DNA of 64,000 nt. Source: Nannocystis bainbridge (GTDB lineage: Bacteria > Myxococcota_A > Polyangia > Nannocystales > Nannocystaceae). The stretch covers positions 2,080,001-2,144,000 of the forward strand of contig NZ_JAQNDL010000001.1 in NCBI RefSeq assembly GCF_028368995.1, read 5' to 3'. Numbering within the stretch: the first letter of the stretch is position 1; the number at the start of each line of letters is the position of its first letter. The translations under genes and the position numbers were made by a program. The notes beneath the pieces are model-generated. The model did not search any database. It saw only the letters and a list, made by a program, of their open reading frames with translations, and was not told the DNA's origin. Shown here piece by piece: positions 5,087 through 62,328 of the stretch.

Positions 5087-5833
5087 TCACTCGACGTCGA
5101 TGTCGGTGAGGAAGCCCGGCAGCGGGCCCGAGGGCTGCGCGGCGCGGGGCTTCATGAAGTTCGCCTGCGAGGGCTCGCGCATGAAGGCCGGCGGCGGGAC
5201 GTCGCGGCTGTTCATGGAGTCGCCGAGGCCGGGCTCCTGCTGGGCGAAGAACGCGAGGATCGGCTTGACGCCGGCGATCTGCTCCTCGGTGGCGGCGTCG
5301 CGGATCGCCTGGTCGGCCAGCGCGGCGGCCATCGACTCGCGGATCTCGGCGATCTCCGCGTCGAGCTCGGCGATGCGTGCGGTGCCCTCGTCGATCACCT
5401 TCTGGGCCCGCGCGCCGCCCTCGCGGATGAACGCCTGCAGCGCCTCCACCTCGGCGCTCGCGGCCTGGATGATCTTCTGCGTCGGGACATCGAAGGCGGT
5501 GAACGCCGCCTCGACGATCTGCCGCTTCAGCGCGGCCGGCGAGTTCTCCGGCAGGCTCCGCAGCAGGTCCTGAGCCTTGGTCACGCGCTGCTGCTGCTCG
5601 ACCTCGACGCCAGCCCGGCGGAGCACCGCCGGGAAGTCGATCTCGGTCGGGTAGCGCTCGGTGAGGCGAAATTGGGGCGGGGGCGGGGGAGCGGGTGGCT
5701 GGATCGGCATGGGTGCGGGTGCGGGTGCGGGTGTGAAGGCGGGGACGGGTGCGGGGGGGAGCGCGGGCATGTCGTCATCGACATCGATCGGGCGGCTCCC
5801 GAACAGGCCCTTCAGGAAACTCATCAAGCCCAT
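5087..5833 (-). CDS. Hypothetical coiled-coil protein with amphipathic N-terminus
   Basis: MGLMSFLKGLFGS, Pro-rich linker, helical C-domain; good codon usage. Confidence 0.8.
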   Translation of the reverse strand: MGLMSFLKGLFGSRPIDVDDDMPALPPAPVPAFTPAPAPAPMPIQPPAPPPPPQFRLTERYPTEIDFPAVLRRAGVEVEQQQRVTKAQDLLRSLPENSPAALKRQIVEAAFTAFDVPTQKIIQAASAEVEALQAFIREGGARAQKVIDEGTARIAELDAEIAEIRESMAAALADQAIRDAATEEQIAGVKPILAFFAQQEPGLGDSMNSRDVPPPAFMREPSQANFMKPRAAQPSGPLPGFLTDIDVE

Positions 5834-6180
5834 GGTCTGGCCCTCTCTGGCATGGGACCGACTTTACTCCATTTTTTGAAGGGGCGCGCTTAAGCGGTTC
5901 GAAGGGGGAATTTCGTCGAAGTGTCGAGTGCGAACGCTTGGAGGTCCACGGAGCAGGGTCAGTTCGTGAACCATGATGCTCGACCTCGAACAGCTCTACA
6001 GAGCTCTCGGTCGGCAGGTATCGTGAACCTGGGCCCGGCGGGCACGCCGAGACGGACTCCTCGTCGGGCAAACGACAAGGGAGGCCGAGCGCGGCGCTGG
6101 AGGCCGGTGCGGTCAACCGGTGAACAGCAGGAGCGGCGCTGGAGGTCACGACAAGGAGGCCGAGCGCGGCACTGCGTCCG

Positions 6181-6735
6181 CTCGACGTCGCCACCGCCGG
6201 GACCGCCGCGCGCTTCCTCGCCGCCTTGCTGGCCGCCTCCCCGGTCGCCTGCCTCGTCGACGGCAGCGCCCGCATGCGCGAGCGGCCCATGGAGGGCCTC
6301 CTGCAGGCCCAGGGCGCCGACATCGCCTGCCGCGGCGCCGACGACACGTTGCCGTGCGAGATCAGGGGCGCCCGCCTGCGCGGCGGCGAGATCCGCCTGG
6401 CCCGTCCGCCGAGCTCCCAGTTCATCTCCGCCCTCCTGCTGGCCGCCGCGCTCGCCGCCGCCCCGCTGCGCATCGTCCTCGAGCCGGGCACCCCGGCGCG
6501 GCCCTGGGTCGAGCCCGACGCCTCGGCCGCGACCTACTTGTGGTCGCTGGCGGCGATCTACGGCGGCGAGGTCACGGTGCCCGGGCTCGGCCGCGCCAGC
6601 CAGCAAGGCGACGCTCGCTTCGGCGAGGTGCTCGCGCGCATGGGCGCCGCGGTCGAGCATGGCGAGCACGGCCATCTGGTCCGAGGGACAGGTTCTCTGC
6701 GCGGCGTCGACCTCGACCTGGCCGACATGCCCGAC
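6181..6735 (+). pseudogene. aroA: Internal fragment of EPSP synthase with internal deletion(s)
   Basis: AGTAARFL, DGSARMRERPM, SSQFISALLLAA, VEPDASAA, SQQGDARF, DLADMPD motifs; lacks N- and C-termini and the segment between ARPW and VEPDAS. Confidence 0.85.
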
Positions 6736-6822
6736 GCAACCCGTGGCAAGTCTCCCTCCCCGCCAAAGCCCCTCCGGGTGGAGCTCCGCGGCGTTTGGCA
6801 GCGGAGGGGCTTCTGGCGAGGA

Positions 6823-6844
6823 TGGGTCAGAACTTGTTCCACAG
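6823..6844 (-). repeat. 22-bp direct repeat of the glnA 3' end (att-like core)
   Basis: TGGGTCAGAACTTGTTCCACAG identical to 11758-11779; encodes LWNKF-stop. Confidence 0.9.
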
Positions 6845-6942
6845 GTCGCAGTTTGGCCGACGTCGCTGACGTGGCGTGTTCTTGGCCACTTGGGGCTCTT
6901 TGAGGCAAGTTTGGCACGGGATTGCCCCACATCGCGGCCGCT

Positions 6943-7404
6943 TCAAGGGCCGCCTGCTCCTTGGCCAGGTGGATGTACTTCTACATGGTCGACAATCGCG
7001 CCCAACGTGAAGCCGGTCGTCCGCATCCGCAAGGCATACGCGCCCCCACCGGGCGCCGGGCTGTCGGATGCGGTGTAGTAGCGGAAGACGTTGCTGGCGG
7101 AGGACCAGGGTCCTGATGCGCAATTGTGCCAGATCAGCCAGCCGGAAAGGTCTCCCGAGCCCTCGAAACTATTCGTATACACGGTCACCGGCGGCTCGGG
7201 CCTCCACGCGGAGACCGTGGGCATGCTGCTCTCGAGCCACGACTCCATGTCCCGCTGCCCATGGATACCGAGCGGGACTCCCAGGTACTGCGCCCATAAC
7301 TTGGCATGTCGTTCGCCGTCGGATCCTCTCGCGGCCGAGGCCGACGTGCGCGCATATGTTGCCGACACCTCCCCGCGAAATGGGCGAGGTCGACCGGCGA
7401 GCAT
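6943..7404 (-). pseudogene. Probable gene fragment (secreted or carbohydrate-binding-like)
   Basis: Protein-like core (VYTNSFEGSGDLSGWLIWHNC...AYALRMRT) without a credible start. Confidence 0.3.
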
Positions 7405-7560
7405 GCGGGCGTCGTCGTATCACCACCGGGCGCTTGACCGCGATGGATATCGATAGTCTCGTACGCGCCGTGGCGAGCGATCTCGGAGTCAGCCTGACAC
7501 GACTTCTGGACACGCCCCCCGCATTCGCCAAGCGAATAGCCGCACCGCGGCGCGTCGCGA

Positions 7561-7959
7561 TCAGCGGGGGAGGCAGTAACCGGTGATGTACTCCTGCGCG
7601 ATGCAGACGCCCGAGCAGTTCGTCTTGCAGATGGCGGACGTGGAATACCACGAGCCGTTCGAGGTGCACTGGTACTTGATCGGGCACGGGGGCAGGGCCT
7701 GGACCGAGCCCTCGCCCTCGGCGAGGATCAGCTCGGGCGCCTCGTCGAGCACGGATGAGCCCGGTTCATCCGTGGTGTTCTCGACCGGCTCATTGGTGTT
7801 CGACGACCCACCCTCGGTGTTCGTCGATGCGCCGGTCTCGCTCGAGTCTCCGGGCAGGTCGCCGCCCTGGTCCCCGAGATCGCAGGCCGACAGCGTCAGC
7901 GCGAGCGGGAGCACGAAAAAGAAGCGGGAGAAGAAGTGGATGCATTTGGAAGCGTTCAT
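7561..7959 (-). CDS. Small lipoprotein with Cys-rich C-terminal domain
   Basis: LALTLSAC lipobox; six Cys in the last 40 aa. Confidence 0.75.
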   Translation of the reverse strand: MNASKCIHFFSRFFFVLPLALTLSACDLGDQGGDLPGDSSETGASTNTEGGSSNTNEPVENTTDEPGSSVLDEAPELILAEGEGSVQALPPCPIKYQCTSNGSWYSTSAICKTNCSGVCIAQEYITGYCLPR

Positions 7960-8209
7960 CTTAAGTCTTCATCGGCCAGTTCGGCCCCCAGTCCAAGGGC
8001 CGACCCGGACAAACGCCGGACATTCCAGGCCACCCGCTCCCACCGTCATCGCCTCCTGTTGTTGTGACGGCCGCTGGGCGATGGGCGCGACGCCGCAAGA
8101 GCAGGTGCGATCACCGCGCCGCTGCCCGCTCGCAGTGTCCCGTCGCGCCCGCCTTCTGTCCGACACGGCCCTTCGCGGCGGCCCCGACCCGCGCCATCGT
8201 CCGGCACCC

Positions 8210-9127
8210 ATGCGTGCGCTCTGCTTCATTCTCCTCCTCGCCGCGTGCGCCCCGACCGTGCGGGCCCCGACCGTCCCGGTGGCGGTCGCCGGCGTGGAGC
8301 ACCGCGAGACCCACCTGCGCGGCCGGGACGGCGTCGAGCTGTATGCCCAGTCGTGGCGCCCCGCCACTCCCGTGAAGGGGGCAGTCATCGTGATCCACGG
8401 ATTGAAAGATCATGGCACTCGATATGCTGCGCTCGCGGAGCATTTGACCGGGCAGGGTCTCGCCGTGCACGCCCTCGACTTACGCGGTCACGGGCGATCC
8501 GCCGGCGAGCGCGCGTACGTCGCGGATCTCGGCGAGTATATCGCCGACCTCGAGCTCTTCGTCGCCGCGGTCCGTGCGGCCGATCCCGGGGTCCCGCTGT
8601 TCATGATGGGTCACAGCATGGGCGGAGCGCTCGCCACCACCTACGCGCTCGCGCACCCGGGCGACCTCAAGGGCCTCGTACTCAGCGCCCCGGCGCTCCG
8701 TCTCGGCCCCGAGGTGAGCCCCGGGCTGGTGAAGATCACCAGGAAGCTCGGACGCAAGCACCCGCACTGGCGGATCCTGAAGCTCAGGCCGCGCTGGTTC
8801 GCCCGCGATCCCGAGGTCGTCCGCGATGTGGACGGGGCCGATCCATGGGTCGATCGCCGCAAGATCCCGGCGAGCACCGCCGCCGCGCTGATCGCCGGCA
8901 TCGAGCATATCCAGGGCAACATGGAGAAGCTCTCCGTCCCTGTGCTGATCATTCATGGCGACGCGGACCGCATCACGCCGCCCGAGGGCAGCCGCGACCT
9001 GCTGCGCCGCGCCGGCGTCGCGGACAAGCATCTGGAGCTCTATCCCGGCTATTATCACGATCTCCTCCACGAGCCCGAGCACGCCGAGGTCATCGAGGAT
9101 ATCGCGTCCTGGCTCGGCCGACATTGA
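8210..9127 (+). CDS. Alpha/beta hydrolase, lysophospholipase/monoglyceride lipase family, lipoprotein
   Basis: IHGLKDH, DLRGHG, GHSMGG, HGDAD and YHDLLHE motifs; LLAAC lipobox. Confidence 0.9.
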   Translation: MRALCFILLLAACAPTVRAPTVPVAVAGVEHRETHLRGRDGVELYAQSWRPATPVKGAVIVIHGLKDHGTRYAALAEHLTGQGLAVHALDLRGHGRSAGERAYVADLGEYIADLELFVAAVRAADPGVPLFMMGHSMGGALATTYALAHPGDLKGLVLSAPALRLGPEVSPGLVKITRKLGRKHPHWRILKLRPRWFARDPEVVRDVDGADPWVDRRKIPASTAAALIAGIEHIQGNMEKLSVPVLIIHGDADRITPPEGSRDLLRRAGVADKHLELYPGYYHDLLHEPEHAEVIEDIASWLGRH

Positions 9128-9194
9128 CATACGAGGTCGATCCACTCGCCCCCTCGACAGCCCGCTCGCCGCGCACGCGGAGCAGCGGTCGTGA

Positions 9195-10271
9195 TCACCG
9201 CGGCTCGCTGCGCGCACTCGCCGTGCGATGCCCGCGGCGGTACGCGAGCGGGCTCCGGCCGAAGTGAGCGATGAACGCCCTGCGAAAGGCCCGCTCGTCC
9301 TCGTAGCCGACCGCATGGCCGACCTCGGCGACCGCCAGAGCGCTCGTGGAGAGCATCCGCGCCGCCGTCTCGAGCCGCAGCTGGCGCACGAATCGCGCGG
9401 GTGCGAGCCCGGTCGCGGCCACGAAGTGCCTCGTCAGGGTCCGCTCGTTGCAACCGAGCGCGCTCGCCACGTCGCCGAGCTTGAGCGGCGCATCCAGGTG
9501 GGCGCTCATCCATCGCTCGGCGCGCGCGACCAGCTCGTCGTGGCGTGACAGGTGCTCCATCACCAGAAACGGGGCCTGGGAGGTCCGCGCCTCGTCGATG
9601 ACGAGGTAGCGCGCGCACGCGTGCGCCACTTCATGACCGATGAGGCGGCGCACGAGCGCGAGGGTCAGATCGAGCTGAGCCATGGCGGCCGCCGCGGTCA
9701 CGACTGTGCCCGATGTGCACACGATCCGGTCGGCCCGCAGGTCGACGGAGCGATAGCGGCTGCGAAACAGCGGCGCGAGCCACCACGAGGTCGTGGCCTC
9801 GCGGCCATCGAGCAGGCCCGCCTCCGCGAGCAGGAAGGTCGACGAGCAGCTCGCAGCGATGAGGGCCTGGCGCTGGTGGACCGAGCGCAGCGCCGCCACG
9901 AGCGCGACCGCGTCCGGCCTGACGATGCCCGCGAGCACACGCCCGACATCGGCCATGCCGGGGCCGAAGGCGAGCACGATATCGCCTACTGCCGGGTCGA
10001 CGGCGCCATCGGGCCGGATCTCGACGCCGCCGCTCGAACGCACGGGGCCGCCGTCGATGGTCCGAACCGACCAGCGAAACTCCGGGAGCTTTCCGGGAGC
10101 GAACGACCCGCCGACGATGTTGCTCGTCGCCATCACGTCCGTCGTCACCGCGAGCCCCGACGCGAAGAAGCCGTCGAGCACCGCGAGCTGGACGTCGATC
10201 CGTGCCGTCTGCCGATCCGCCCCGGGTGCCATGGCGCGGCCAGGATAGGCCCCCACCGACGCACGCGCCAC
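9195..10271 (-). CDS. GlxA-family AraC regulator (DJ-1/PfpI domain plus HTH)
   Basis: CSSTFLLAEAGLLDGREATTSW and a C-terminal AraC HTH (VGYEDERAFRRAF); start may be 10232. Confidence 0.9.
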   Translation of the reverse strand: MARASVGAYPGRAMAPGADRQTARIDVQLAVLDGFFASGLAVTTDVMATSNIVGGSFAPGKLPEFRWSVRTIDGGPVRSSGGVEIRPDGAVDPAVGDIVLAFGPGMADVGRVLAGIVRPDAVALVAALRSVHQRQALIAASCSSTFLLAEAGLLDGREATTSWWLAPLFRSRYRSVDLRADRIVCTSGTVVTAAAAMAQLDLTLALVRRLIGHEVAHACARYLVIDEARTSQAPFLVMEHLSRHDELVARAERWMSAHLDAPLKLGDVASALGCNERTLTRHFVAATGLAPARFVRQLRLETAARMLSTSALAVAEVGHAVGYEDERAFRRAFIAHFGRSPLAYRRGHRTASARSEPR

Positions 10272-10362
10272 CCTTCGTGAGCGACAGACGTCGCCGGGCC
10301 CGCAGGCAGCCAGGAGGGCCTCTGCGGGTGCCCGGGGTTCAAAGAAAAACGATGCGTCGCGC

Positions 10363-14281: not shown

Positions 14282-16339
14282 TCATGCGATCGTGCGGCTC
14301 GTGATTCGCCCCGTGACGTCGACGACCTCGAGCCACAGCGGGCGCCCCTCGGGGAACTCCGGCGACAGCGAAGTCATCGTCCCGTCGCGCTCGCGCTGCG
14401 TCGACCAGCGCGGCGCGAACACCTCCCCTTCGCATGCGTCGTCGATCGCCCACTCGACGAGCGCATCGAGCCCCGTCGGCGTCGCTCCGCCCGCATCGTC
14501 GGCGGCGGCGTAGTCGACGAGCCGGACCGCCCGCCCCGTCGTGGTCGTTTCGATCGCCAGCACCAGCCGGGCCGCTCGCACCGGCGCGACCGCCTCGCCA
14601 TCGGCGAAGGGCCGCGGGATCTCCCACAGCGACACCGCCTCTCCGGCGAGCTCGTGCGCCGGCGCATCGAAGTCCCACGCGATCAACTCGAGCGCGCTCG
14701 CCCCCGCGGCCCGGGCCGCTGCCAGCCAGGCCTCGATGTCGAACGCGGTCGGCCGCTGCTCGCCGACCGCGACCACCACGGCCGCCCCACCGCGACGGCC
14801 GTGGAGCGGTGCTGCGGCAGCTTCGCGCTCCGATACATGTCCATCGGGACATGTCCCGGTGAGACATCCGCCCGCGCGGGCGGCCTGTCTCTCGGGACAT
14901 CTGTCCTCCTCCATCTTTATCTCGCTGCAGATCGTACCGCGCGGTCCGGATGGCGCCTGTCCTTCGGGACATATCACCGGTCCATCTCTCTCTGCGGCCG
15001 GCGCCTCGGATCGGCTGACTCCGCTCCGCCCCGGGAGATGGCCTGCGGGACGCGCCTCCGCGCCTGCCTCCGGCGCCCCGGCCGCCCCGTCCATGACCTG
15101 TCCCTCGGGCCATGTCTTCGCCCCGTGCAGCGCCAGCAATCGCCCGCGCAGCTCCGCCTCGCCGACGCGTTCGATCAGCGCGCGCCGGGCGGCCGGCAGC
15201 GCGTCGTGCACCGCGAACGGCCCCGCTTCGCCGCGCCGACACTGCGCGCGCAGGCGCCGGCGGATCACCGCGAACGCCGGCTGCGAGCGGTCGATCACGA
15301 TCCACCGGCGGCCGTGGCGGGCTGCCACGGCTGCCGTCGTGCCCGAGCCGGCGAACGCGTCGAGGATCAGGTCGCCCGGGCGCGAGCACATCTGCACGAT
15401 CCGCTCGAGCAGCGCCTCTGGCTTCTGCGTGTCGTAGCCGACCCGCTCCGTGTGCGTGCCCTGCAGCGCGCGGATGTCCGTCCACACGTCTTGCAGCGGC
15501 ACCCCCTCTTGCTCGTCGAGGTACTGCTTCTGCCGCGGCACCGCGCCCGGGCGGCTCTGGTACACGCGGCCGCTGCGGTGCAGCGTCTCCATCGTCGCCT
15601 GGCCGTAGCGCCAGAACCGGCGCACCCCGAGGAACTCGTAGCTCGGGTTGCCCTTGGCCGCGCCGCCCGGGGCCGTGAGCGGGCTCGACATGAACCTTCG
15701 GCCGGTACCCGGCTCGACGTGCCGGTACCACTTGGCCACATAGTCCTTGTCGTACGGCGCGCGCTGGGTCGTCCACGTCCGCTCCGGACCCATCCCGTAC
15801 AGCAGCAGCACGTCGTGCACCCCACCCAGCCGGCGCGCCCCCTGGCCGGCGTCGTTGTGGGCCGAATAGCGCTTCCACGCGATCTGGTTGACGAAGTTGT
15901 CGGCCCCGAAAACCTCGTCCATCGCCACGCGCACGTGGTGGCACACCTGGATCCCGACGTGCACCACGATCGTCGCCGTCGGCTTCATCAGCGCCCGCAG
16001 CAGCGACAGCCGCGGGTACAGCATCGACAGATAGCCGGGGCCGCCCCACGAATCGCGGTAGGCCAGGACTTCGACCTCGCCCTTCCTTAAGTAGTGCGAC
16101 GCGCCGACGTCGAACGGCGGATCGATGTAGACCAGGTCGACCGCGGCGCCGAGCTCCTCGTGCAGCGCCGCCAGGGCCGGCGAGTTGTCGCCCCAGATCA
16201 GTCGATCGCACCAGCCGCTCGCCTCGCCGTCGCGCTCGCGCAGCGTCAGCGGCCCGGCCGCGACCGTCGCGGGGAGCTCGGCCTTGCCCGGCCAGGTCAG
16301 CTCCACTCGCCCTCCGGTCGGGCTGGTCCGCCTGGGCAT
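14282..16339 (-). CDS. Site-specific DNA methyltransferase (N6-adenine, Mod-like beta class)
   Basis: LIWGDN, VYIDPPF, QKPEALLERI, DAFAGSGTT; no restriction gene nearby. Confidence 0.9.
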   Translation of the reverse strand: MPRRTSPTGGRVELTWPGKAELPATVAAGPLTLRERDGEASGWCDRLIWGDNSPALAALHEELGAAVDLVYIDPPFDVGASHYLRKGEVEVLAYRDSWGGPGYLSMLYPRLSLLRALMKPTATIVVHVGIQVCHHVRVAMDEVFGADNFVNQIAWKRYSAHNDAGQGARRLGGVHDVLLLYGMGPERTWTTQRAPYDKDYVAKWYRHVEPGTGRRFMSSPLTAPGGAAKGNPSYEFLGVRRFWRYGQATMETLHRSGRVYQSRPGAVPRQKQYLDEQEGVPLQDVWTDIRALQGTHTERVGYDTQKPEALLERIVQMCSRPGDLILDAFAGSGTTAAVAARHGRRWIVIDRSQPAFAVIRRRLRAQCRRGEAGPFAVHDALPAARRALIERVGEAELRGRLLALHGAKTWPEGQVMDGAAGAPEAGAEARPAGHLPGRSGVSRSEAPAAERDGPVICPEGQAPSGPRGTICSEIKMEEDRCPERQAARAGGCLTGTCPDGHVSEREAAAAPLHGRRGGAAVVVAVGEQRPTAFDIEAWLAAARAAGASALELIAWDFDAPAHELAGEAVSLWEIPRPFADGEAVAPVRAARLVLAIETTTTGRAVRLVDYAAADDAGGATPTGLDALVEWAIDDACEGEVFAPRWSTQRERDGTMTSLSPEFPEGRPLWLEVVDVTGRITSRTIA

Positions 16340-20178: not shown

Positions 20179-20234
20179 TGCTCTTTCGGCCATGTCGTGA
20201 TCGACATGGCCGAAAGCACATGTCCCACAGGACA
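20179..20234. repeat. Array of four 14-bp TGYC-N6-GRCA-like units
   Basis: Units start at 20179, 20193, 20207, 20221, between convergent stops. Confidence 0.75.
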
Positions 20235-29363: not shown

Positions 29364-30194
29364 ATGTCCCAAACGACATTGCCCGAGTGCCAGACGCTGC
29401 TGCTGCGCCGCGACGGCTGGCGCCTGCACGTCACGCTGAACCGGCCCGAGGCGCGCAACGCGATGTCGTTCGCCATGGTCCACGAGCTGCAGGCGGTGTT
29501 CGCCGCGATCGCGGGCGACCGCGAGGTGCGGGCGGTGCTCCTGCGCGGCGCCGGGGGCAACTTCTGCGCCGGCGGTGACATCAAGGACATGGCCGGCGCC
29601 CGCGGGGCCGAGCCGGGCCCCGACGGCAAGGATCCGCTGGCGACGACCAACCGGATCTTCGGCGCGATGCTGCAGCAGATCGAGGACGCCCCGCAGGCGG
29701 TCGTCGCGGTGCTCGAGGGCGCGGTCATGGGCGGCGGCTTCGGCCTGTGCTGCGTCAGCGACGTCGCCGTCGCCGTCGACGATTCCAAGCTGCGCCTGCC
29801 CGAGACCGGCCTCGGCGTGCCGCCGGCCCAGATCGCCCCGTTCATCGTCCGCCGCGTCGGCTACAGCGCAGCGCGCCGGCTCGCGGTCACCGGCGGGGCG
29901 CTCGGCCCCGACGAGGGGCTGCGCCTCGGGCTGGTCCACCACGTGACCGATCGGGCAGGTCTCGAGGGACAGGTGGCGAAGGTCCTGGCCGACATCGGCC
30001 GCTGCGCCCCCGAGGCGGTCGCCACCACCAAGCGGCTGGTCCTGGCCGCCAGCGGGGCGCCGCACGGCGACGCCCTGTCCGCCCTGCTCGACGTCGCCGC
30101 CGACGAATTCGCCCGCGCCGCCCGCGGCTCCGAGGGCGTCGAGGGCATGCTCGCATTCATTCAGAAGCGCAACGCCGCCTGGAACGACCAATGA
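29364..30194 (+). CDS. atuE: Isohexenylglutaconyl-CoA hydratase-like crotonase
   Basis: FCAGGDIKDM, GGGFGLCCVSD, LPETGLGVPPAQIAPF. Confidence 0.85.
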   Translation: MSQTTLPECQTLLLRRDGWRLHVTLNRPEARNAMSFAMVHELQAVFAAIAGDREVRAVLLRGAGGNFCAGGDIKDMAGARGAEPGPDGKDPLATTNRIFGAMLQQIEDAPQAVVAVLEGAVMGGGFGLCCVSDVAVAVDDSKLRLPETGLGVPPAQIAPFIVRRVGYSAARRLAVTGGALGPDEGLRLGLVHHVTDRAGLEGQVAKVLADIGRCAPEAVATTKRLVLAASGAPHGDALSALLDVAADEFARAARGSEGVEGMLAFIQKRNAAWNDQ

Positions 30195-35194: not shown

Positions 35195-36982
35195 ATGGCC
35201 CACGACACCATCCCTGCCCGCTTCCTCGCCCGCGGCCAGGCCCACCCCGACAGACCGGCCTATTACGTGCGCAAGGACGGCGCCTGGCGCCCGACTCGCT
35301 GGCGCGAGTACAACGACCAGGTCCGCCGCGCCGCGCGGGCCATGATCGGCCTCGGCCTGCAGCCCGGCCAGGGCGTCTGCATCCTCTCGTACAACCGCGC
35401 CGAGTGGGCCATCACCGCCTTCGCCGCCATGGCCGCCGGCGGCGTCCCGGCCGGTATCTACACCACCTGCTCCGCCGGCGAGGTGCAGTACATCGTCCAC
35501 CACGCCGAGGCCCCGCTGGTGGTCGTCGAGGACCGCGCGCAGTACGACAAGCTGGCCGCGCAGCGCGACAAGCTGCCGGGCCTGCGCCACATCGTCGTCC
35601 TGCAGGGCGCGGAGGCCATCGGCGACCCGCTGGTCCTCTCGTGGGAGCAGTTCCTCGCCCGCGCCGACGCCGTCGCCGAGGCCGCGCTGAGCGAGCGCCT
35701 GGCGAACCTCCACGAGGACGACACCAGCACGTACATCTACACCTCCGGCACCACCGGCCCGCCCAAGGCCGTCATGCTGTCGCACAAGAGCGTGCTGTGG
35801 ACCACCGAGGTGCTCCTCGAGCTGGTCGAGAACAACCCGGACGATCGCCTGCTGTCGTACTTGCCGCTGTCGCACATCGCCGAGCAGATGCTCTCGATGC
35901 ACGGCCCCGCCTGCTGCGGCTACGCCGTCTACTGGGCCGAGGCGCTCGAGCGCGTGCCCGACAACCTCAAGGAGGCCCAGCCGACCGTCTTCTTCGGCGT
36001 GCCGCGGATCTGGGAGAAGTTCCACGCCGCCGTCGCCGCGCGCCTGTCCCAGACGACAGGTCCCAAGAAACAGCTCGTCGACTGGGCCACCGGCGTCGCC
36101 CGCCGCTACCACGCCCTCGCCACCCGCGGCCGGCCGGTCCCGCTGGTCCTGCGGGCCCAGTACCAGCTGGCGCGGCGCCTCGTGTTCACCAAGCTGAAGA
36201 CCGCGCTCGGCCTCGGCAGCGTGCGCGCCTGCGTGTCCGGGGCCGCGCCGATCGCCGCCCACGTGCTCGAGTTCTTCGCCGGCCTCGACCTCGTCGTCGC
36301 CGAGGTCTACGGCCAGAGCGAGGACTGCGGCCCGACCACCCTCAACATCCCCGGCGCCACCAAGCTCGGCAGCGTCGGCCGCCCCATCCCTGGCCTCGAG
36401 GTCAGGCTCGGCGAGGACGGCGAGATCCTCGTGCGCGGCCCCAGCGTGTTCAAGGGCTACTTCAAGGACCCGGCCGCCACCGACGAGGCGCTGCAGGACG
36501 GCTGGCTGCACTCCGGCGACCTCGGGGCCTTCGACGCCGACGGCTTCCTCTCGATCACCGGGCGCAAGAAGGAGATCATCATCACCGCTGGCGGCAAGAA
36601 CATCGCCCCCAAGAACCTCGAGGCCGCGCTCAAGGAGAGCCCGCTGATCGAGGAGGCGGTGGTGATCGGCGACCGCCGCAAGTTCCTCGGGGCCCTGCTG
36701 GCGATCGACCGCGCCGCCGCGGCCCGGTGGTTAGAGGGCCAGGGCCAGCCCGCCGACGAGCCGCTGCACGACAGCCCGGCGCTGCTCGCCGAGATCGGCA
36801 AGTGGGTCGAGAAGTCCGGCGAGCAGTTCGCCCGCGTCGAGCAGGTGCGCCGGTTCAAGCTGCTGCCGCGCAGCCTCGGCGCCGACCACGGCGAGCTCAC
36901 GCCGACGCTCAAGCTCAAGCGCAAGGTCATCGAGAAGCAGTGGGCCGACCTCGTCGAGGCCATGTACGAGGGCGCCGACTGA
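35195..36982 (+). CDS. Long-chain fatty acid-CoA ligase
   Basis: YTSGTTGPPK, YGQSE, GWLHSGDLG, GELTPTLK. Confidence 0.92.
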   Translation: MAHDTIPARFLARGQAHPDRPAYYVRKDGAWRPTRWREYNDQVRRAARAMIGLGLQPGQGVCILSYNRAEWAITAFAAMAAGGVPAGIYTTCSAGEVQYIVHHAEAPLVVVEDRAQYDKLAAQRDKLPGLRHIVVLQGAEAIGDPLVLSWEQFLARADAVAEAALSERLANLHEDDTSTYIYTSGTTGPPKAVMLSHKSVLWTTEVLLELVENNPDDRLLSYLPLSHIAEQMLSMHGPACCGYAVYWAEALERVPDNLKEAQPTVFFGVPRIWEKFHAAVAARLSQTTGPKKQLVDWATGVARRYHALATRGRPVPLVLRAQYQLARRLVFTKLKTALGLGSVRACVSGAAPIAAHVLEFFAGLDLVVAEVYGQSEDCGPTTLNIPGATKLGSVGRPIPGLEVRLGEDGEILVRGPSVFKGYFKDPAATDEALQDGWLHSGDLGAFDADGFLSITGRKKEIIITAGGKNIAPKNLEAALKESPLIEEAVVIGDRRKFLGALLAIDRAAAARWLEGQGQPADEPLHDSPALLAEIGKWVEKSGEQFARVEQVRRFKLLPRSLGADHGELTPTLKLKRKVIEKQWADLVEAMYEGAD

Positions 36983-41124: not shown

Positions 41125-41152
41125 CGGCGCCTGTCTTTCGAGACAGGCGCCG
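41125..41152. terminator. Hairpin with a TGTC-N6-GACA core
   Basis: CGGCGCCTGTCT-TTCG-AGACAGGCGCCG just after the 41164 stop. Confidence 0.55.
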
Positions 41153-44780: not shown

Positions 44781-45065
44781 GGTTTTGGCTGGCCGATCGG
44801 CCATGTCCTGGAAGACAGGCCCACTTCAGCCTGTCCTTTTAGCCATGTGCGCTCGCCGGCGCGCAACGGCTCGCACGCGGGGCATGGCGCACCCGCGTCA
44901 GCCCACGCCGGAGCTGTCCCAACGGACCTGCTGCCAAGGACAGCCGCGCGCGGCGGTCCGCACCTGCCCACGGGCCGATCGCCGCTTCGCGGAACGGTCG
45001 TTCCTGTCCTGCAGGTCACTCGTAAACCCGCCCTTGCGGGAGGCACCTGCGGTATTGTGCGCTGG

Positions 45066-46241: not shown

Positions 46242-46453
46242 GCCGCCGCCCCCTCCGAGTCGCCGCGATGCCCCGCGCTCGCGGCGATTTTTTTGCCCGC
46301 GGATCCGCCGGCCTCGCAAACACATGTCCTTTGGGACATGTCCTGAAGACCGCACGCCTCGCGGGTCTGCTCGATCCGCGGGCCCGGGGCGATCGCTCCG
46401 CCCGCGGCGATCTCCTGGAGCAGGCACACCGCGGCCCTGCTACGATCGCGCCG

Positions 46454-47486: not shown

Positions 47487-48422
47487 ATGGCGGACCGCGG
47501 TCCCGTCAATGGCGCCCGGCACCTGTCCCAACCGCCAGCTGCGGACAATGGCCACCCGCTGCGGCCGCTGCTGCGGACCGGCGCGACCCGGGTCGCGTCG
47601 CGGCTGTCCGGCCCCGCCGCACATGTCCCGTGGGCCATCCTCCACGGCGACGTGCGCGACGGCCTGGCCGCGCTGGCCGACGAGTCGGTCGCCTGCATCG
47701 TCACCAGCCCGCCGTACTTCTGGCAGCGCGACTACGGGGTCGCCGGCCAGCTCGGGCACGAGCCCACCATCGCCGGCTACGTCGCCGCGATGCGCGAGGT
47801 GTTCGCCGCGGCCCGGCGCGTGCTCAAGAAGGACGGCGCGCTGTTCCTCAACCTCGGCGACACCTACTACTCGGCCAAGGGTCGCCCGCACGGCCGCGAC
47901 GACAAGCACCGCGGCCGCATGCTCGCGCGCAGCACCCTGCGCGCGGTCGACGGCCCCGGCCTCGGCCTGCCGCGCAAGAGCCTGATCGGCATCCCCTGGC
48001 GGGTCGCGCTCGCGCTGCAGGAGGACGGCTGGACCCTGCGCAGCGACATCATCTGGAAGCGCCCGGCCACCATGCCCGAGCCGACCGCCCGCGACCGCCC
48101 GTGGAACACCCACGAGCACGTGTTCCTGTTCTCCCTCACCCCGCGCTACCACTTCGACCGCGGCGGCCTCCAGGGCGAAGAGGACATCTGGCAGATCACC
48201 GCCCGCCCCGACAACCCCGCCGCCCACTTCGCCCCGTTCCCCGCCGCCCTCGCCGAGCGCTGCATCCGCACCGGCTGCCGCCCCGGCGGCGTCGTGCTCG
48301 ACCCGTTCGCCGGCTCCGGCACCACCCTCCTGGCCGCCCGCGCCCTCGGTCACCCGGCCGTCGGCATCGAGCTGTCCCCCAGCTACTGCGAGGCCATGGT
48401 CACCGCGCTCGGCGGCACATGA
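47487..48422 (+). CDS. DNA methyltransferase, N4-cytosine/N6-adenine beta class
   Basis: VTSPPY, HFAPFP, LDPFAGSGTT, GIELSP; start uncertain. Confidence 0.88.
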   Translation: MADRGPVNGARHLSQPPAADNGHPLRPLLRTGATRVASRLSGPAAHVPWAILHGDVRDGLAALADESVACIVTSPPYFWQRDYGVAGQLGHEPTIAGYVAAMREVFAAARRVLKKDGALFLNLGDTYYSAKGRPHGRDDKHRGRMLARSTLRAVDGPGLGLPRKSLIGIPWRVALALQEDGWTLRSDIIWKRPATMPEPTARDRPWNTHEHVFLFSLTPRYHFDRGGLQGEEDIWQITARPDNPAAHFAPFPAALAERCIRTGCRPGGVVLDPFAGSGTTLLAARALGHPAVGIELSPSYCEAMVTALGGT

Positions 48423-48461
48423 CCTCGGCGACATGTCGACATGGCCATGTCCGATCGGCCA
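48420..48461. repeat. Three 14-bp palindromic units filling a convergent gap
   Basis: TGACCTCGGCGACA TGTCGACATGGCCA TGTCCGATCGGCCA. Confidence 0.75.
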
Positions 48462-50987: not shown

Positions 50988-51137
50988 TATGTCTTTCGGG
51001 ACATGTCGCTCCACACATGTCCCTGACAATTGTTTCACGTCGCTGCGGCGCGATCGGGACCGCCCTGACGCTCGCAGTCACGCCCGGCTGCAGGGACCGG
51101 ACTTGCCGCGGCCCATGAATCGGGCCAGCATGCCCGC

Positions 51138-52814: not shown

Positions 52815-52898
52815 TGTCACATCAGACATGCTCCAAAGCGCATGTCCGATGTGACATGTCGCCTGGAGCATGCCCCTTCGGGCATGTCCCTTCGGCCT
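52815..52898. repeat. Six tandem 14-bp palindromic units
   Basis: Units at 52815, 52829, 52843, 52857, 52871, 52885. Confidence 0.85.
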
Positions 52899-53497: not shown

Positions 53498-53871
53498 GGG
53501 CCGCAGCATACCGCGTCCAGCCGCGCAGCGCCCGATCTGTCCTCCGGGACAGCCCCATCGAACCAGCGGCCGCGGCCGGACCGCAGCACCTCGCGCCGAT
53601 CGACGCGCAGGCGCCGGCGCACGATCCCCCGGCCAAGGGATGGCAGATCCGCCGATCCTTGCGCGCGACCGCCAGCCGCACGGACCCCAGGACCCCCCTC
53701 CGACCTCGCTCGCACCGGAGCGCGAGCCAGCGCGACCCCAGCCACGGCATCCGCACGTCACGCGCCCGCGCGCCAGCGACAGGGTCCATGACCCCCGGTG
53801 AGCGCCAGCGAGCGGCCTCCGCGCGCGCGCTTCATCGCCGGCTGCGATCCGTGGCATCCTCGGCCTGACGC

Positions 53872-54828: not shown

Positions 54829-55536
54829 ATGCGAATCGCCGCGCTCAGCGACTTCCACATCGGCGCGCGCGCCGGCATGGACGAGTTTCGCCACGACGAG
54901 GCCGCCTTCCTCGAGAGGCTCGCCCGCGTCGTCGGCGAGCACGACCGCGTCGTCCTCGTCGGCGACATCTGGCAGACCGACCACGACCTGTTCCCCGGCC
55001 CGCGCGCCGCGGCCCGCCAGCTCCACCTCGCGCGCCGCCGGCTGCCACGGCTGACCCGCGCCCTCGACCGCCTCGACTACGTCCACGGCAACCACGACTT
55101 CATCGCCCGCGACGAGCTCGGCGCCGCCGCCGAGCTGCAGATCGACGCTGACGGGTGCCGGGTCCTGTTTCGCCACGGTCACCAGCACGACCCCGTGTTC
55201 GCCCGCGCCTACCGGGCCGCCCGCGCCGCCACGTGGTTCACCGGCCGCCTGCGCCGCGCCGGCCTCGGCCCGCTCGCCCACTACTTCGAGCAGCAGGACG
55301 TCGCCATCAAGCACCGCCGCTTCGGCCACGCCGCCGGCCCCTACGCCGCCGCCGCCCGGGCCCTCATGCGCGAGCGCGGCGCCGATCTCGTGGTCATGGG
55401 CCACACCCACGTCGCCCACGTCCATTACCTGTCCGAAGGGACAGTCGTCAACACCGGCACCTGCTCGGCCGGCCGCTTCACCGTCGTCACCATCGACACC
55501 GCCGCCCGCGCCGCCAGCATCACCCACGATCGGTGA
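54829..55536 (+). CDS. Metallophosphoesterase (LpxH-like)
   Basis: SDFH, VGD, GNHD, HGH, GHTH. Confidence 0.88.
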   Translation: MRIAALSDFHIGARAGMDEFRHDEAAFLERLARVVGEHDRVVLVGDIWQTDHDLFPGPRAAARQLHLARRRLPRLTRALDRLDYVHGNHDFIARDELGAAAELQIDADGCRVLFRHGHQHDPVFARAYRAARAATWFTGRLRRAGLGPLAHYFEQQDVAIKHRRFGHAAGPYAAAARALMRERGADLVVMGHTHVAHVHYLSEGTVVNTGTCSAGRFTVVTIDTAARAASITHDR

Positions 55537-55570
55537 CCTGTCCCCGGGGACATCCTCTCCTGCGCCGCGC

Positions 55571-56323
55571 ATGCAGCTGCCCCGCGTCACCTCCGCCTCC
55601 GTCTGGCCGCCCGTGCTCGTCACCGCCGGTCCAGGCGCGCGCAGCGAGGCGCACGCGCACCACGCCATGCACCTCGTGCTCGCGCGCGGCGGCACCCTCG
55701 CCATCACCGTCGGCGACACCACCGTGCGGGCCGCAGGCATCGTCACCGCGCCCGACCACGAGCACGCCCTCGACGCGCGCGGCGTCGACATCGTCCTCGT
55801 CTTCTTCGACCCCGAGAGCGACGCCGGCGAGCGCCTGCGCGCCGGCCTCGACGCGCCGGTCCGCACCCTCGACGCCGGCGAGCGCGACGGTCTGCTCGCC
55901 GATCTGCCCGGCGACGCCGACCCCGAGCCGCTCCACGCCTGGGGTCACGCCGCCGCCGAGCGCCTGTCCCGAGAGACAGCCACGCCGCGCGCCCTCCACC
56001 CGCGCGTGCGCAAGCTGCTCCGCGCCCTGCGCAGCGCCGCCCCCGAAGCCGACACGTCCTTGCCGGCCCTCGCCGCCCTCGCCGGTCTGTCCGAGAGCCG
56101 GCTCGTGCACGCCTTCCGCGACTCGGTCGGCATCCCCCTGCGTCCGTACCTCCTGTGGCAGAAGCTGCAGCGCGCCGTGGTCGCCATGGCTTGCGGCGAA
56201 CCGCTGGCCCGCGCCGCTCACTCGGCCGGCTTCGCCGACGCCGCCCACATGAGCCGCACCTTCCGCCGCATGTTCGGCATGACCGCCTCGGAGCTGCAGC
56301 GCAGCCTCCCGCGCCCCGCGTAG
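55571..56323 (+). CDS. AraC-family regulator
   Basis: HAHHA, LSESRLVHAF, AGFADAAHMSRTFRRMFG. Confidence 0.9.
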   Translation: MQLPRVTSASVWPPVLVTAGPGARSEAHAHHAMHLVLARGGTLAITVGDTTVRAAGIVTAPDHEHALDARGVDIVLVFFDPESDAGERLRAGLDAPVRTLDAGERDGLLADLPGDADPEPLHAWGHAAAERLSRETATPRALHPRVRKLLRALRSAAPEADTSLPALAALAGLSESRLVHAFRDSVGIPLRPYLLWQKLQRAVVAMACGEPLARAAHSAGFADAAHMSRTFRRMFGMTASELQRSLPRPA

Positions 56324-60044: not shown

Positions 60045-60090
60045 TTTAGACATGATGAATTTGACAGTAGACATCGTGTCTTGATAAACG
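60045..60090. promoter_or_regulatory. Divergent promoter with putative TetR operator
   Basis: TTGACA at 60061 followed by the palindrome AGACA-TCG-TGTCT at 60069-60081. Confidence 0.55.
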
Positions 60091-60095
60091 ATCGC

Positions 60096-60446
60096 ATGCT
60101 CACGATCCTGGCGTTCCTGGCCAAGCGGCCCGACCTCACGAACGAGGCGTTCGTCGACCATTACGAGAACCACCACGTGCCGCTCATCTGCCGGCTGGTG
60201 GGTTCGCCGCCGGTCTATCGTCGCAGCTACCTGCGGCACGACGACGCCCTGCTGCCCGGCGCGGCGATCGGCTTCGATGTGGTCACCGAGCAGAAATTCG
60301 CCGATCGTGGAGCACTGGACGCGTGGCTGGCGGCGGTGTCACGACCCGAGGTGGCCGCGCAGGTGCGCGCCGACGAGGAGAGCTTCCTCGACCACCGGCA
60401 CTACTTCGCCTACATCGTCGAGGAGCACGTCACGACGGGCGCATGA
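60096..60446 (+). CDS. EthD-domain protein
   Basis: KRPDLTNEAFVDHYENHHVPL...FDVVTE...DEESF. Confidence 0.85.
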   Translation: MLTILAFLAKRPDLTNEAFVDHYENHHVPLICRLVGSPPVYRRSYLRHDDALLPGAAIGFDVVTEQKFADRGALDAWLAAVSRPEVAAQVRADEESFLDHRHYFAYIVEEHVTTGA

Positions 60447-60580
60447 GGGCGCGACTCGTGGCGACGACGACATCGCCCTCATCGCACGCACGCGCCCCGT
60501 CTGCGGGCGAATGCGCGCGACTTCACGACCGCGTCACGGGTTTGCAACGACTTCGGCTTCCGCACTACGCTCGAACACGT

Positions 60581-62245
60581 ATGAGCACGCTGCGCCCGCC
60601 TGGCCTCGGCCCGATCGTCGGCCACACGACCGACCGTTCCTGTCGCCTGTGGATGCAGGCCGCCACGCTCGACGACCCGCGCAAGATCGTCGCCGACGAA
60701 GATCGGCGCACCATCGGCGTGCTCGTCGTCCTGCAGAAGGACGATCACGTCATCCCCGCGCCCGTGCGGCCGGTGTTTTATTTTCGCCTCCAGCGCGAGT
60801 TCGATCGCACCGGCACCTTCGTGCTCGGCATCGAGGCCGGCCTCGGCGGCACCACCCCCGTCTTCGCGCTCGAGCCTGACACCACCTATCGCGTCCGGCT
60901 CGCCTCGCTCGCCCTCGACGACGCCGAGGACAACGAGCTGCGCGCCAGCGACGAAGAGCTCGCCGCCACCTTGCCGAACCCGCAGGTGTGGGCGGCCCAG
61001 GTCGAGCGCCTGCCGGACGTCGCCTGCGAGGCCGTGTTCCGCACCTGCAGCCCGCGCAGCGTCGCCGCCCCGGCCTTCTCCTTCATGCTCGGCTCGTGCC
61101 GGTATCCCGGCCTGATGTGGAAGGTCAAGGAGTCCGACCGGATCTTCGGCCCCATGTTCAGGGAGCTTGAGAAGGAGAAGCTCGGCGCGCGGCCCAGCCT
61201 CGTCGTCATGTGCGGCGACCAGATCTACGCCGACGCCTTCCACCGCGCCGTCCCGGTCGCGCTCGCCGACACCCACGCCGAGTTCACCGAGCGTTATCAG
61301 CAGGCGTTCGGCTCGTTCAACATGCGCCGGCTGCTGCGACATGTCCCGACGTACATGTGCCTCGACGACCACGAGATCGAGGACAACTGGTCGCAGGACC
61401 GCCTGGGCAAGCCCGGCAAGAAGATCCTTTTCAACCTCGCTATCGGCTCTTACATGAGCTATCAGTGGAGCCACTCGCCGCGCAATTACGGCAAGCGGCT
61501 CTACTACAGCTTCGTCAGCAGCGGCTACCCGTTCTTCTCGCTCGACTGCCGCACCCAGCGTTACATGGACGACGTCCCCGACACCGTCGAGGACAACCAC
61601 ATGCTCGGGCGGCCCTCGCTCGACCCTGACGAGCCGAGCCAGCTCGACGTCCTGTGCGAGTGGCTGCGCGACCAGCAGGCCGACCGCGGCAACGTCCCCA
61701 AGTTCATCGTCAGCGCCAGCGTGTTCGCGCCCAACCCGGTGTTTGCGATGAACGGCGCCAGCGTCCCCCACCTCGAGAAGAGCGACGCCTGGCCGGCCTT
61801 TCCCAACACCCGCAAGACCCTGCTGCAGAACATCGTCGACCACCGGATCCAGAACGTCGTGTTCCTGTCGGGCGACGTCCACAGCGCCTCGGTCGCCCAG
61901 CTCGATTTCCGCGGCGCCGGCAGCGAGGACCTGCGCGCCTACTCCCTGGTCTCCTCGGCCTTCTACTGGCCGTTCCCGTTCGCCGACGGCGACCCCGCCG
62001 AGTTCGTGCACGACTCCCGCGACCCGCGGACCCCCGACACGTTCGAGATCCGCCCCGGCGTGACGATGGACTACCGCGCCTGGAATTTCTGCAACGACGA
62101 CAACTACGCCCGGGTCACCGCCGACCGGGCCAGCCACTCGCTGACGATGGAGCTGATCGGCCGCGACGGCGCCCCGATCGCCAGCAAGGGCCCCTACAAA
62201 AAAACGGTCGACCTCACCAGCCGGCTCGAGCTCGCGCCCTGGTGA
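60581..62245 (+). CDS. phoD: Alkaline phosphatase D family protein
   Basis: GSC, GDQIYAD, DDHE, LDCRTQR, SGDVH. Confidence 0.85.
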   Translation: MSTLRPPGLGPIVGHTTDRSCRLWMQAATLDDPRKIVADEDRRTIGVLVVLQKDDHVIPAPVRPVFYFRLQREFDRTGTFVLGIEAGLGGTTPVFALEPDTTYRVRLASLALDDAEDNELRASDEELAATLPNPQVWAAQVERLPDVACEAVFRTCSPRSVAAPAFSFMLGSCRYPGLMWKVKESDRIFGPMFRELEKEKLGARPSLVVMCGDQIYADAFHRAVPVALADTHAEFTERYQQAFGSFNMRRLLRHVPTYMCLDDHEIEDNWSQDRLGKPGKKILFNLAIGSYMSYQWSHSPRNYGKRLYYSFVSSGYPFFSLDCRTQRYMDDVPDTVEDNHMLGRPSLDPDEPSQLDVLCEWLRDQQADRGNVPKFIVSASVFAPNPVFAMNGASVPHLEKSDAWPAFPNTRKTLLQNIVDHRIQNVVFLSGDVHSASVAQLDFRGAGSEDLRAYSLVSSAFYWPFPFADGDPAEFVHDSRDPRTPDTFEIRPGVTMDYRAWNFCNDDNYARVTADRASHSLTMELIGRDGAPIASKGPYKKTVDLTSRLELAPW

Positions 62246-62328
62246 GCGCCGAAGGACATGTCCCCGCGGACATGTCCCTCGTCCCATGCTCTCGAGGACA
62301 TGCCGCCAGGGACATGTCCCCTCTTCAA
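62245..62328. repeat. Five to six tandem 14-bp palindromic units
   Basis: CATG junctions at 14-bp period (62257, 62271, 62285, 62299, 62313). Confidence 0.8.

Follow-up and report, generated by a model that had tools for sequence, protein, structure and literature searches.

An abundant, clade-restricted bipartite palindrome concentrated past gene ends in Nannocystis

The genome of Nannocystis bainbridge carries, thousands of times over, the bipartite palindrome TGTC-N6-GACA (TGTCC-N4-GGACA in the form with five-base arms), each occurrence of which is termed a unit here. We describe it from a window of 64,000 nucleotides (C1:2080001-2144000, 68-76% G+C) and from the whole 11.05-Mb, five-contig genome (71.5% G+C) in which that window lies. 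The element is a real, lineage-restricted and selectively maintained palindrome, with about 3700 exact and about 8000 one-mismatch copies in this one genome. Its abundance, its sharply defined arms, the conservation of those arms against a drifting centre, the persistence of its consensus within coding sequence (CDS) by way of an otherwise avoided codon, and the step in its density just past stop codons argue that it is a functional, sequence-specific signal tied to the ends of transcription units. The interpretation that we favour, tentatively and with slightly less than even confidence, is that the palindrome is the duplex-DNA site of a putative dimeric protein that marks the ends of transcription units.

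Abundance, anatomy and position of the palindrome

A pattern search of the window returns exactly 20 exact TGTC-N6-GACA sites, from 5770 to 62259; these are the same 20 that the original prediction had picked out by eye, with none to add. Shuffling the window 100 times with dinucleotides preserved yields a mean of 0.88 sites (sd 0.91, maximum 4), and none of the shuffles reaches 20, which places the rough expectation of about 0.4 given with that prediction at the right order. The many one-mismatch copies that it mentioned come to 47. Throughout the genome, TGTC-Nx-GACA occurs 3663 times at x=6 and only 29-175 times at each other spacer between 0 and 24, except at x=20, where the 984 copies represent two abutting units. 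Further peaks are harmonics of the same spacing (GACA-N0-TGTC, 2237 copies; GACA-N14-TGTC, 1305; direct repeats at N10, 3246, and at N24, 1566), and the proposed scan of spacers therefore confines the excess to x=6 and its harmonics. With five-base arms, TGTCC-N4-GGACA is present 1987 times, as compared with 2 copies at N7 and 0 at N1, and it tops all palindromes of the form 5-N4-5 in the genome, its A/T content notwithstanding. A single mismatch in the eight core bases accounts for a further 8008 places. Density is even along all five contigs, at 26-105 sites per full 200-kb bin.

The full site is a 20-bp palindrome, RCM-TGTCC-N4-GGACA-KGY, whose matrix reads R-C-M-TGTCC-y-n-n-r-GGACA-K-G-Y, with some arm positions nearly invariant. 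As had been predicted, the arms are constant but the centre varies freely: 854 different N6 sequences occur among the 3663 sites. At the M/K position of the flank, the left arm reads ATGT-N8 in 58% of sites and CTGT-N8 in 37%. Because the R-C-M flank is also seen at sites with no neighbouring unit and at sites inside high-confidence genes, where the consensus equals the 20-bp intergenic one, we consider the flank to be part of the site. Neighbouring units often abut, giving arrays with a 14-bp phase: the spacing of successive GACATGTC junctions is 14 bp (223 cases), 28 bp (69), 42 bp (31) or 56 bp (21), with almost none between these values. The entity is the N4-centred pair of arms, not the junction word; 1171 of the 3663 units stand without either neighbour, and only 264 of the 2237 junction words are without both partner arms. 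Lone half-sites are also rare, with a partner arm of at most two mismatches found beside 79% of ACATGTCC words, as opposed to 11% in the background. The sequences around the units are not shared: when sites were taken with 150-nt flanks, 3438 of 3662 matched only themselves in the genome. Where alignments with congeners have gaps, arrays differ by whole units.

Gene positions were derived from a rough gene model of our own, based on a codon log-odds score trained on long open reading frames (ORFs), which comprises 7983 genes and 82.7% coding DNA and in which starts are uncertain. By this model, 2343 sites are intergenic, 41 straddle a gene boundary and 1279 (35%) lie in CDS, so that copies occur both between and inside genes, as first noted. 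Their density is 1.245 per kb in non-coding DNA and 0.140 per kb in coding DNA (0.10-0.14 per kb inside genes), and it differs among types of gap:

Convergent gaps: 2.91 sites per kb
Co-directional gaps: 1.09-1.27 sites per kb
Divergent gaps: 0.42 sites per kb

In a metagene profile of unit centres per 1000 genes per 25 nt, values are about 2 inside genes, rise to 68 and 69 in the first two bins past the stop codon (a step of about 30-fold), decay over about 200 nt, and are 8-17 upstream of start codons. An exact unit occurs within 100 nt past the stop in 18.0% of 7973 genes, compared with 4.4% within 100 nt before the start, which, together with the low density in divergent gaps, bears out the earlier statement that the sites lie mostly away from promoters. 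Stop codon and unit are separated by a variable 2-30 nt, and units are also present within long genes. Convergent gaps of 50-100, 100-200 and 200-400 bp hold a unit with at most one mismatch in 62%, 75% and 75% of cases, respectively, and derived arithmetic gives about 1.3-2.6 units per convergent gap irrespective of its length. The share of co-directional gaps that hold a unit is 9-10% for lengths below 50 bp and climbs with length, to about 60% beyond 400 bp, as would be expected if junctions internal to operons are free of units and operon ends carry them.

Coding sequence, conservation and the sites of the window

For a codon-aware null we used the 2548 best-scoring genes of at least 300 codons (4.22 Mb). 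These contain 419 sites, as compared with 17.8 ± 5.2 when codons are permuted within genes and 27.1 ± 3.6 when synonymous codons are shuffled with the proteins kept, a 15-24-fold enrichment that is achieved by synonymous codon choice. All other spacers tested in CDS are at expectation; the two shuffles and the same-phase spacers rule out an artefact of codon or amino-acid usage. The original prediction would have fallen had x=6 shown no excess over such a null, and the excess holds (419 against 18-27). The dependence on codon choice is further supported by the rare threonine codon ACA, which makes up 1037 of the 77,586 threonine codons in these genes (1.3%), and of which 184 (approximately 18%) lie inside exact sites. 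As judged from this codon usage, the units inside genes are under selection at the DNA level.

A gene on another contig of this genome (G000 C2:2066053-2070511, minus strand) holds 19 units in 2 kb. It encodes a tetratricopeptide repeat (TPR) protein of 1486 residues with a long low-complexity region of PEAVPADSQ, PEAVSSDSQ and EAAPSDSQ-type repeats, in which the V-P-A-D-S and V-S-S-D-S parts are encoded by units or their one-mismatch variants (xT GTC Cnn nnG GAC Axx). Units may seed such disordered repeats, or ride on them.

Conservation was assessed in relatives, which are kin and not independent samples. Syntenic stretches of four congeners cover 44-47.5 kb of the 64-kb window at an identity of about 90%, and at most of the aligned window sites the arms are kept while the centre differs by species (e.g., 20193, 20221, 50990, and 55965). 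A comparison over 560 kb with the congener G010 gave the following values:

Exact intergenic sites: 39 of 131 aligned; arms 85.6%, far flanks 70.7%, central 4 nt 54.5%
Exact CDS sites: 38 of 65 aligned; arms 95.7%, far flanks 84%, central 4 nt 84%

One-mismatch intergenic units have no extra conservation in the same comparison (arms 79.5%, flanks 77.1%), and the majority of intergenic sites have no alignable counterpart; the same holds for 58% of intergenic bases overall. These alignments indicate that the arms are kept by selection while the centres drift, inside genes too.

The sites of the window and their contexts are as follows:

5770..5783, exact unit TGTCGTCATCGACA, 50 nt inside the 5' end of predicted ORF 5087-5833 (minus), which has no Pfam match; unaligned in four relatives, context uncertain
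14838..14971, three exact units (14838, 14886, 14958) inside ORF 14282-16306 (minus), within some 450 nt of non-coding appearance (codon score dip at 14700-15150); unaligned in relatives
20193..20234, a pair of exact units at a distance of 28 bp, occupying a 71-bp convergent gap (plus-strand gene ends at 20165, minus-strand gene at 20237); arms and near flanks largely kept in 4/4 relatives with differing centres, apart from one arm-base change in G010 at 20221; folded stems of 13 bp and 5 bp
29365..29378, exact unit that overlaps the start codon (ATG) of the enoyl-CoA hydratase gene 29364-30194 (plus); right arm with one mismatch in 4/4 relatives
36045..36058, exact unit in an AMP-binding enzyme gene, read as CTG TCC CAG ACG ACA (L S Q T T) with the rare threonine codon ACA; exact in 3/4 named Nannocystis loci (L001-L004), with ACC there in a more distant Nannocystis metagenome-assembled genome
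37049..37062, exact unit in a GHL10 glycosyl-hydrolase-like gene (minus), read as L S P G T; exact in L001-L004 and in 3/4 of the relatives compared over the window, the remaining one having a single mismatch
41132..41145, exact unit centred in a palindrome with a 16-bp stem (-35.6 kcal/mol), in a 91-bp gap between two minus-strand genes, 18 nt past the stop of the upstream gene; position kept in five relatives (exact in two genomes, one mismatch in three)
44804..45018, exact unit at 44804, 23 nt past a stop codon, with one-mismatch units at 44832, 44915 and 45005
46262..46294 (plus), canonical hairpin and T7 terminator directly past the 46241 stop, separate from the motif; conserved in congeners
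46325..46338, exact unit some 30 nt past that terminator, with the next start codon 115 nt further on; conserved as an island, the rest of the gap (241-546 nt in relatives) having diverged
48420..48461, one-mismatch units at 48420, 48434 and 48448, abutting one another and occupying a 40-bp convergent gap
50990..51017, exact unit 2 nt past a stop codon, then a one-mismatch unit; the stem of 13 bp takes in the stop codon (-17.7 kcal/mol); four relatives keep the arms but vary in the centre
52815..52898, six units phased at 14 bp in a convergent gap, exact at 52815 and 52843
53538..53551, an exact unit whose gap is divergent in the gene model; unaligned in relatives, context uncertain
55430..55443, exact unit in a metallophosphoesterase gene, read as L S E G T; 3/4 relatives have it exact and the other has one mismatch
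55539..55552, exact unit 2 nt past the metallophosphoesterase stop and 18 nt before the next gene; 5-bp stem only, folding no better than shuffled sequence
55965..55978, exact unit in an AraC-family regulator gene; arms kept and centre different in 4/4 relatives
62259..62328, five units phased at 14 bp in a convergent gap, 13 nt past the stop, exact at 62259 and with one mismatch at 62301; the end of this array, 62328, is the end of the reported stretch

The genes that carry units in frame, for the AMP-binding enzyme, the GHL10 protein, the metallophosphoesterase and the AraC-type regulator, are genuine. Several local features accompany these sites. Roughly one quarter of the window, at about 1-20000 and near 53500, is without an aligned counterpart in the four congeners; it includes 5770, 14838-14958, a TerB-like gene (13697-14098) and the methylase ORF, and is probably a strain-specific island, though a unit-bearing one. 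That ORF (14282-16306, minus, 674 codons) has an N6_N4 DNA methylase domain (PF01555) in its first 343 residues, is stop-free through the non-coding-looking stretch and recovers its codon score beyond it; it could be two genes fused in frame, or its linker could have been colonised by units. At 17967-18124, in a convergent gap, three one-mismatch units (TGTCCC..ATCGCCA) lie exactly 72 bp apart, which suggests a 72-bp tandem repeat with one unit per copy. Lastly, 44915-44942 is a 28-bp composite, TGTCC-N4-GGACC|TGCTG-N4-GGACA, with exact outer and degenerate inner arms, which is kept in 4/5 congener loci; to judge from this case, the 14-bp phase can evidently persist when inner arms decay.

Taxonomic range and the search for Rho

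A conserved protein encoded in the window is 82-90% identical to proteins of named Nannocystis records, which places the genome in that genus. The motif was counted together with a reversed-pattern control in the genomes listed here:

This genome: TGTCC-N4-GGACA 1987, control 3
Ten other Nannocystis genomes (abundant in 10/10): 114-2090, control 1-6
Two sister genera, G011 and G013: 87 and 161, control 10 and 1
Six further genera of the family: 3-5, control 0-5
Twelve genomes from other families of the class: 0-7, control 0-4
200 genomes sampled evenly across the phylum: 0-14, control 0-28

It is thus moderate in G011 and G013 and at background in 218 other Myxococcota genomes, and the comparison with related myxobacteria that the original prediction had called for confines it to Nannocystis and, at a moderate level, two sister genera. 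The intermediate counts of G011 and G013 (87 and 161 in 8.6 Mb, as opposed to 3-5 in six sister genera) may represent stages in the rise or the decay of the motif, and would make these two genomes useful for dating it and for phylogenetic profiling of its putative reader protein.

The RNA-binding domain of the termination factor Rho (PF07497) had no match in any of the 19 Nannocystaceae genomes searched (G000 and G001-G018, one of them a single contig), and was found in 10/12 genomes from other families of the class and in 9/14 control genomes. Full-length Rho from G023, used as a query, found nothing in G000, G001, G010, and G011, and in G013 only a 26%-identical ATPase stretch. In the accessible part of a 2024 survey (PMC11347177), Haliangium ochraceum is the one species out of 12 Myxococcota without a functional Rho, although Supplementary Table S4 of that survey may list more. 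The same part states that the reasons for the loss of Rho and its replacements are unknown, and gives the cyanobacteria, host lineage of the iterated palindrome HIP1 discussed below, as also without Rho (PMC11347177).

Readings of the palindrome and comparison with known systems

The central question is whether the palindrome acts as sequence on the duplex or as structure in a single strand. Mirror positions do not covary, with Watson-Crick pairing at 0.95-1.22 times the expectation under independence, and at the first flank pair A/T (1458), C/G (651), A/G (540) and C/T (606) all occur freely. Compensated double changes in the arms occur at 1.0-2.4 times the product of the single changes for common variants, and at up to about 4 times for rarer ones. 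When sites in co-directional gaps are oriented by transcription, the centre CTTCGG (23) is as frequent as CCGAAG (23), spacer composition is mirror-symmetric, and ACA (309) and TGT (310) flanks balance. Extending the flanks with G.U allowed gives at least four pairs at 192 sites in the sense and 170 in the antisense orientation, with 795 G.U and 783 C/A oppositions. RNA-specific signals are accordingly absent both in loop orientation (no preference for UUCG over CGAA) and in sense-strand G.U. Most units have stems of only 5-8 bp; at least six further Watson-Crick pairs are formed at 5.2% of intergenic sites, as compared with 0.7% of re-paired controls, and CDS sites have no such excess.

The site of a dimeric protein on duplex DNA is favoured over an RNA or single-stranded DNA hairpin because of this lack of covariation, the symmetry with respect to transcription, the short stems and the conserved sites in genes. 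The part of the original prediction that saw here the site of a dimeric protein gains from two independently specified inverted half-sites at a fixed distance, from the absence of covariation and from the drift of the spacer, while the protein itself is still putative. In such an arrangement, each monomer would read one (M)TGTCC half-site across an uncontacted 4-bp centre, and neighbouring dimers could align at 14-bp steps. The main job would be performed at the ends of transcription units, from either direction, with convergent gaps carrying about 1-2 units each. There, in a family in which Rho was not found and hairpin-plus-T terminators are scarce, the putative factor may stop or insulate transcription, or handle the torsional stress that builds at such ends; it could serve as a roadblock or insulator for polymerases no longer trailed by ribosomes, or as a manager of supercoils between converging genes. 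The prediction had further spoken of a chromosome-organising or terminating protein. Terminating fits the rise of about 30-fold past stop codons; organising, in the sense of matS or Noc, does not fit thousands of evenly spread sites, and a domain-specific organising site is rejected given the even density on all contigs.

Several points weigh against a dimeric reader at transcription-unit ends. A role in termination is drawn from position alone, and the action of the reader from position together with the failure to find Rho, while the gene positions themselves derive from our rough gene model. It is an assumption that translated transcription could get past a roadblock which is present inside genes as well. 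Among genes with a full site in their divergent upstream region, considered as candidates for an autoregulated reader protein, 0/6 encode a DNA-binding domain (four are without a Pfam match, one has HEAT repeats, and one encodes a PEBP protein), and this line was a dead end. A search for an mTERF-like factor found no match in the genome, and, as its control was likewise without a match anywhere, it weighs neither way. A minority of units form long, terminator-like hairpins, such as 41132, 50990 and 20193 with stems of 13-16 bp, and wobble-compatible single arm changes on the transcribed strand outnumber their mirror images by 285 to 230, a weak and ambiguous bias due to one position that is also more variable for non-wobble changes. 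Finally, counts of the motif are at background in six Rho-less genera of the family, and no other bipartite palindrome above z 7.8 was found in samples of the Rho-less G015 (200 kb) and G017 (103 kb), in a ranking that places the positive control first at z 25-29. The loss of Rho alone therefore does not call for this element.

A fuller version of the same idea, to which we give a fair but clearly less than even chance, is a bidirectional, factor-dependent and sequence-specific system for ending transcription units in Nannocystis and its nearest relatives. In it, a dimer on the RCM-TGTCC-N4-GGACA-KGY duplex, in 14-bp-phased assemblies, would stop ribosome-free polymerases and so take on, genome-wide, the policing that Rho performs in most bacteria. 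Stops would then act right past stop codons and, inside genes, on transcripts that are antisense or untranslated.

A hairpin in the transcript or in single-stranded DNA, that is, a lineage-specific bidirectional terminator without a U-tract or a stabiliser of mRNA 3' ends, with its stem read by a specific factor much as REP hairpins act at the RNA level, is unlikely, though several observations favour it. Units lie directly past stop codons and are strongly enriched in convergent gaps, where a perfect palindrome would present the same stem in both transcripts; several window units have stems of 13-16 bp that fold at -17.7 to -35.6 kcal/mol with z-scores of -6 to -8; the excess of intergenic sites with six or more extra pairs points the same way; and canonical terminators are scarce and Rho was not found. 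It is the identity of the arms that matters, however, and not their pairing, and neither loop orientation nor sense-strand G.U has the bias that an RNA element would bring. The short stems of most units, exemplified by 55539, the CDS enrichment through synonymous codons with conservation there, and the position of the 46325 unit downstream of a canonical terminator also speak against it.

As for an ordinary intrinsic terminator, a T-run follows within 12 nt of only 57/1217 units in co-directional gaps, and the share of these gaps with a hairpin and T-run is 3.3% with no unit and 4.5% where a unit is present. That candidate is rejected, given the lack of T-runs after units, the lack of compensatory change in the stem, and a presence independent of canonical terminators. 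A terminator scan of 20 kb of the window found 7 terminator-like sites, not enriched over 4.3 ± 2.5 in shuffles, and no known RNA family of Rfam matched the window at gathering thresholds. Canonical hairpin-plus-T terminators exist in the genus but are rare.

Molecular drive without a cellular function is improbable in our estimation. Biased DNA uptake or recombination, of the kind known for the DNA uptake sequence (DUS) and the uptake signal sequence (USS), or repair and gene conversion toward the consensus, would let copies pile up wherever they are tolerated. This would suit the thousands of clade-restricted copies spread evenly along the chromosome, their entry into CDS via codon choice, growth by substitution in place of insertion of a longer element, array lengths that change by whole units, and densities that peak in convergent gaps, where constraint is weakest, and reach their minimum in promoter regions. 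Yet the number per convergent gap is roughly constant and not proportional to length, and density peaks within 50 nt of the stop before decaying. Lone half-sites are rare, unlike one-word uptake signals, and among intergenic units extra conservation is limited to the exact ones, which fits a threshold of function. Drive explains the spread into genes, not the constant number per gene end.

A site of cleavage or binding by a type IIA topoisomerase (gyrase or topoisomerase IV), or by a partner that recruits it, is very improbable. Such enzymes cut with a 4-bp stagger, which the symmetric arms around exactly four free base pairs would match, and the gene-end position, convergent above all, together with the presence inside long genes, would suit the relief of positive supercoils from converging polymerases; supercoil relief by gyrase has been proposed for bacterial interspersed mosaic elements (BIMEs) in Escherichia coli. 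Known sequence preferences of gyrase are weak, in contrast with arms nearly invariant at some positions; gyrase is conserved, whereas the motif is confined to one clade; and gyrase wraps about 130 bp, to which a 14-bp phasing is ill-suited.

A small mobile element is largely refuted and scarcely credible. Its high copy number, extragenic 3' preference and hairpin shape resemble repetitive extragenic palindromic (REP) sequences and the REPINs formed from them, but the Y1 transposase that mobilises these (REP-associated tyrosine transposase, RAYT; PF01797) has 0 matches in this genome (90.5% complete), while a control search detected it in 6/14 reference genomes. The 854 centres and the 35% of sites in predicted CDS, frame-compatible and with positions conserved between species, are equally unsuited. 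We therefore reject REP/RAYT elements, given the missing Y1 transposase, the CDS copies (1279, of which 419 are high-confidence) and the free centre, and also a miniature inverted-repeat transposable element (MITE) or longer repeat, given the unique flanks; membership in a catalogued REP or MITE, which the original prediction had named as a possible refutation, is not borne out.

The closest known system is REP/BIME by placement, HIP1 by spread, and an FNR- or PadR-type operator by geometry, but the motif lacks a defining feature of each. REP, BIME and REPIN elements of enterobacteria and Pseudomonas are clustered extragenic palindromes in hundreds to thousands of copies, and have been proposed to act in stabilising mRNA 3' ends, in termination and in binding gyrase. 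The motif shares with them shortness, abundance, clustering and a preference for gene 3' ends and convergent gaps; it differs in having no RAYT gene, a free centre, a length of 14-20 bp within unique flanks, and a conserved CDS excess with positions conserved between species, whereas REP elements are strictly extragenic copies of one sequence that is conserved together with its loop. HIP1 (highly iterated palindrome 1), the octamer palindrome GCGATCGC of cyanobacteria, is of unsettled function, and HIP type is linked to a cognate methyltransferase. It is likewise confined to a lineage and, spreading by substitution, exceeds expectation by orders of magnitude both inside and between genes, but it is one contiguous word, as opposed to a bipartite site with a fixed 4-bp free centre, a gene-end bias and 14-bp arrays.

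The DUS of Neisseria and the USS of Pasteurellaceae occur about once per 1-3 kb, in clade-specific dialects and as terminator-like inverted pairs after genes. Copy density, clade dialects, presence in genes and gaps, and position after genes are all similar, while uptake words are single, asymmetric and abundant alone, and the half-site of the motif is rare alone. Bidirectional terminators and the mycobacterial TRIT motif are symmetric hairpins right past stops in convergent gaps, TRIT being conserved in sequence within a high-GC lineage; the motif differs from them in its missing T/U tract (57/1217), its 5-8 bp stems, its lack of covariation and its enrichment and conservation in genes. Operators of dimeric regulators include the FNR-type 5-N4-5, PadR ATGT-N8-ACAT, enteric LexA CTGT-N8-ACAG and MrpC GTGTC-N8-GACAC. 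These have the same inverted and independent half-sites, fixed unread spacer and length of about 14-20 bp, but they number tens per genome and lie in promoters, whereas the motif numbers thousands, is poorest on the promoter side and peaks past stops, with a cognate protein that is putative. The sites of matS, Noc, SlmA and parS are also palindromic dimer sites scattered in genes and gaps; they number tens in one chromosome domain, and the motif is about 100-fold more numerous and evenly spread. By these likenesses, the motif would belong with the lineage-specific highly iterated palindromes.

No description of the motif was found among the literature matches listed for the GGACATGTCC word, for Nannocystis palindromes or repeats, or for TGTCC/GGACA in intergenic sequence, in keeping with the earlier remark that no description was known. 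The available part of the N. exedens genome note contains nothing on it, and that of a survey of spaced motifs contains only an unrelated pair from Bifidobacterium.

The palindrome is a very abundant and sharply defined candidate signal for how bacteria without Rho and poor in U-tract terminators end their transcripts, and its 20-bp sequence is sharp enough to be used for direct tests and for fishing out the factor. Even as a site of nucleoid organisation or topology, or as a product of drive, it would be an unusual bipartite iterated palindrome, and one that recruits about 18% of the uses of an avoided codon. It should be useful for the annotation of gene ends in Nannocystis, for the study of how genome signatures evolve, and for the engineering of natural-product producers.

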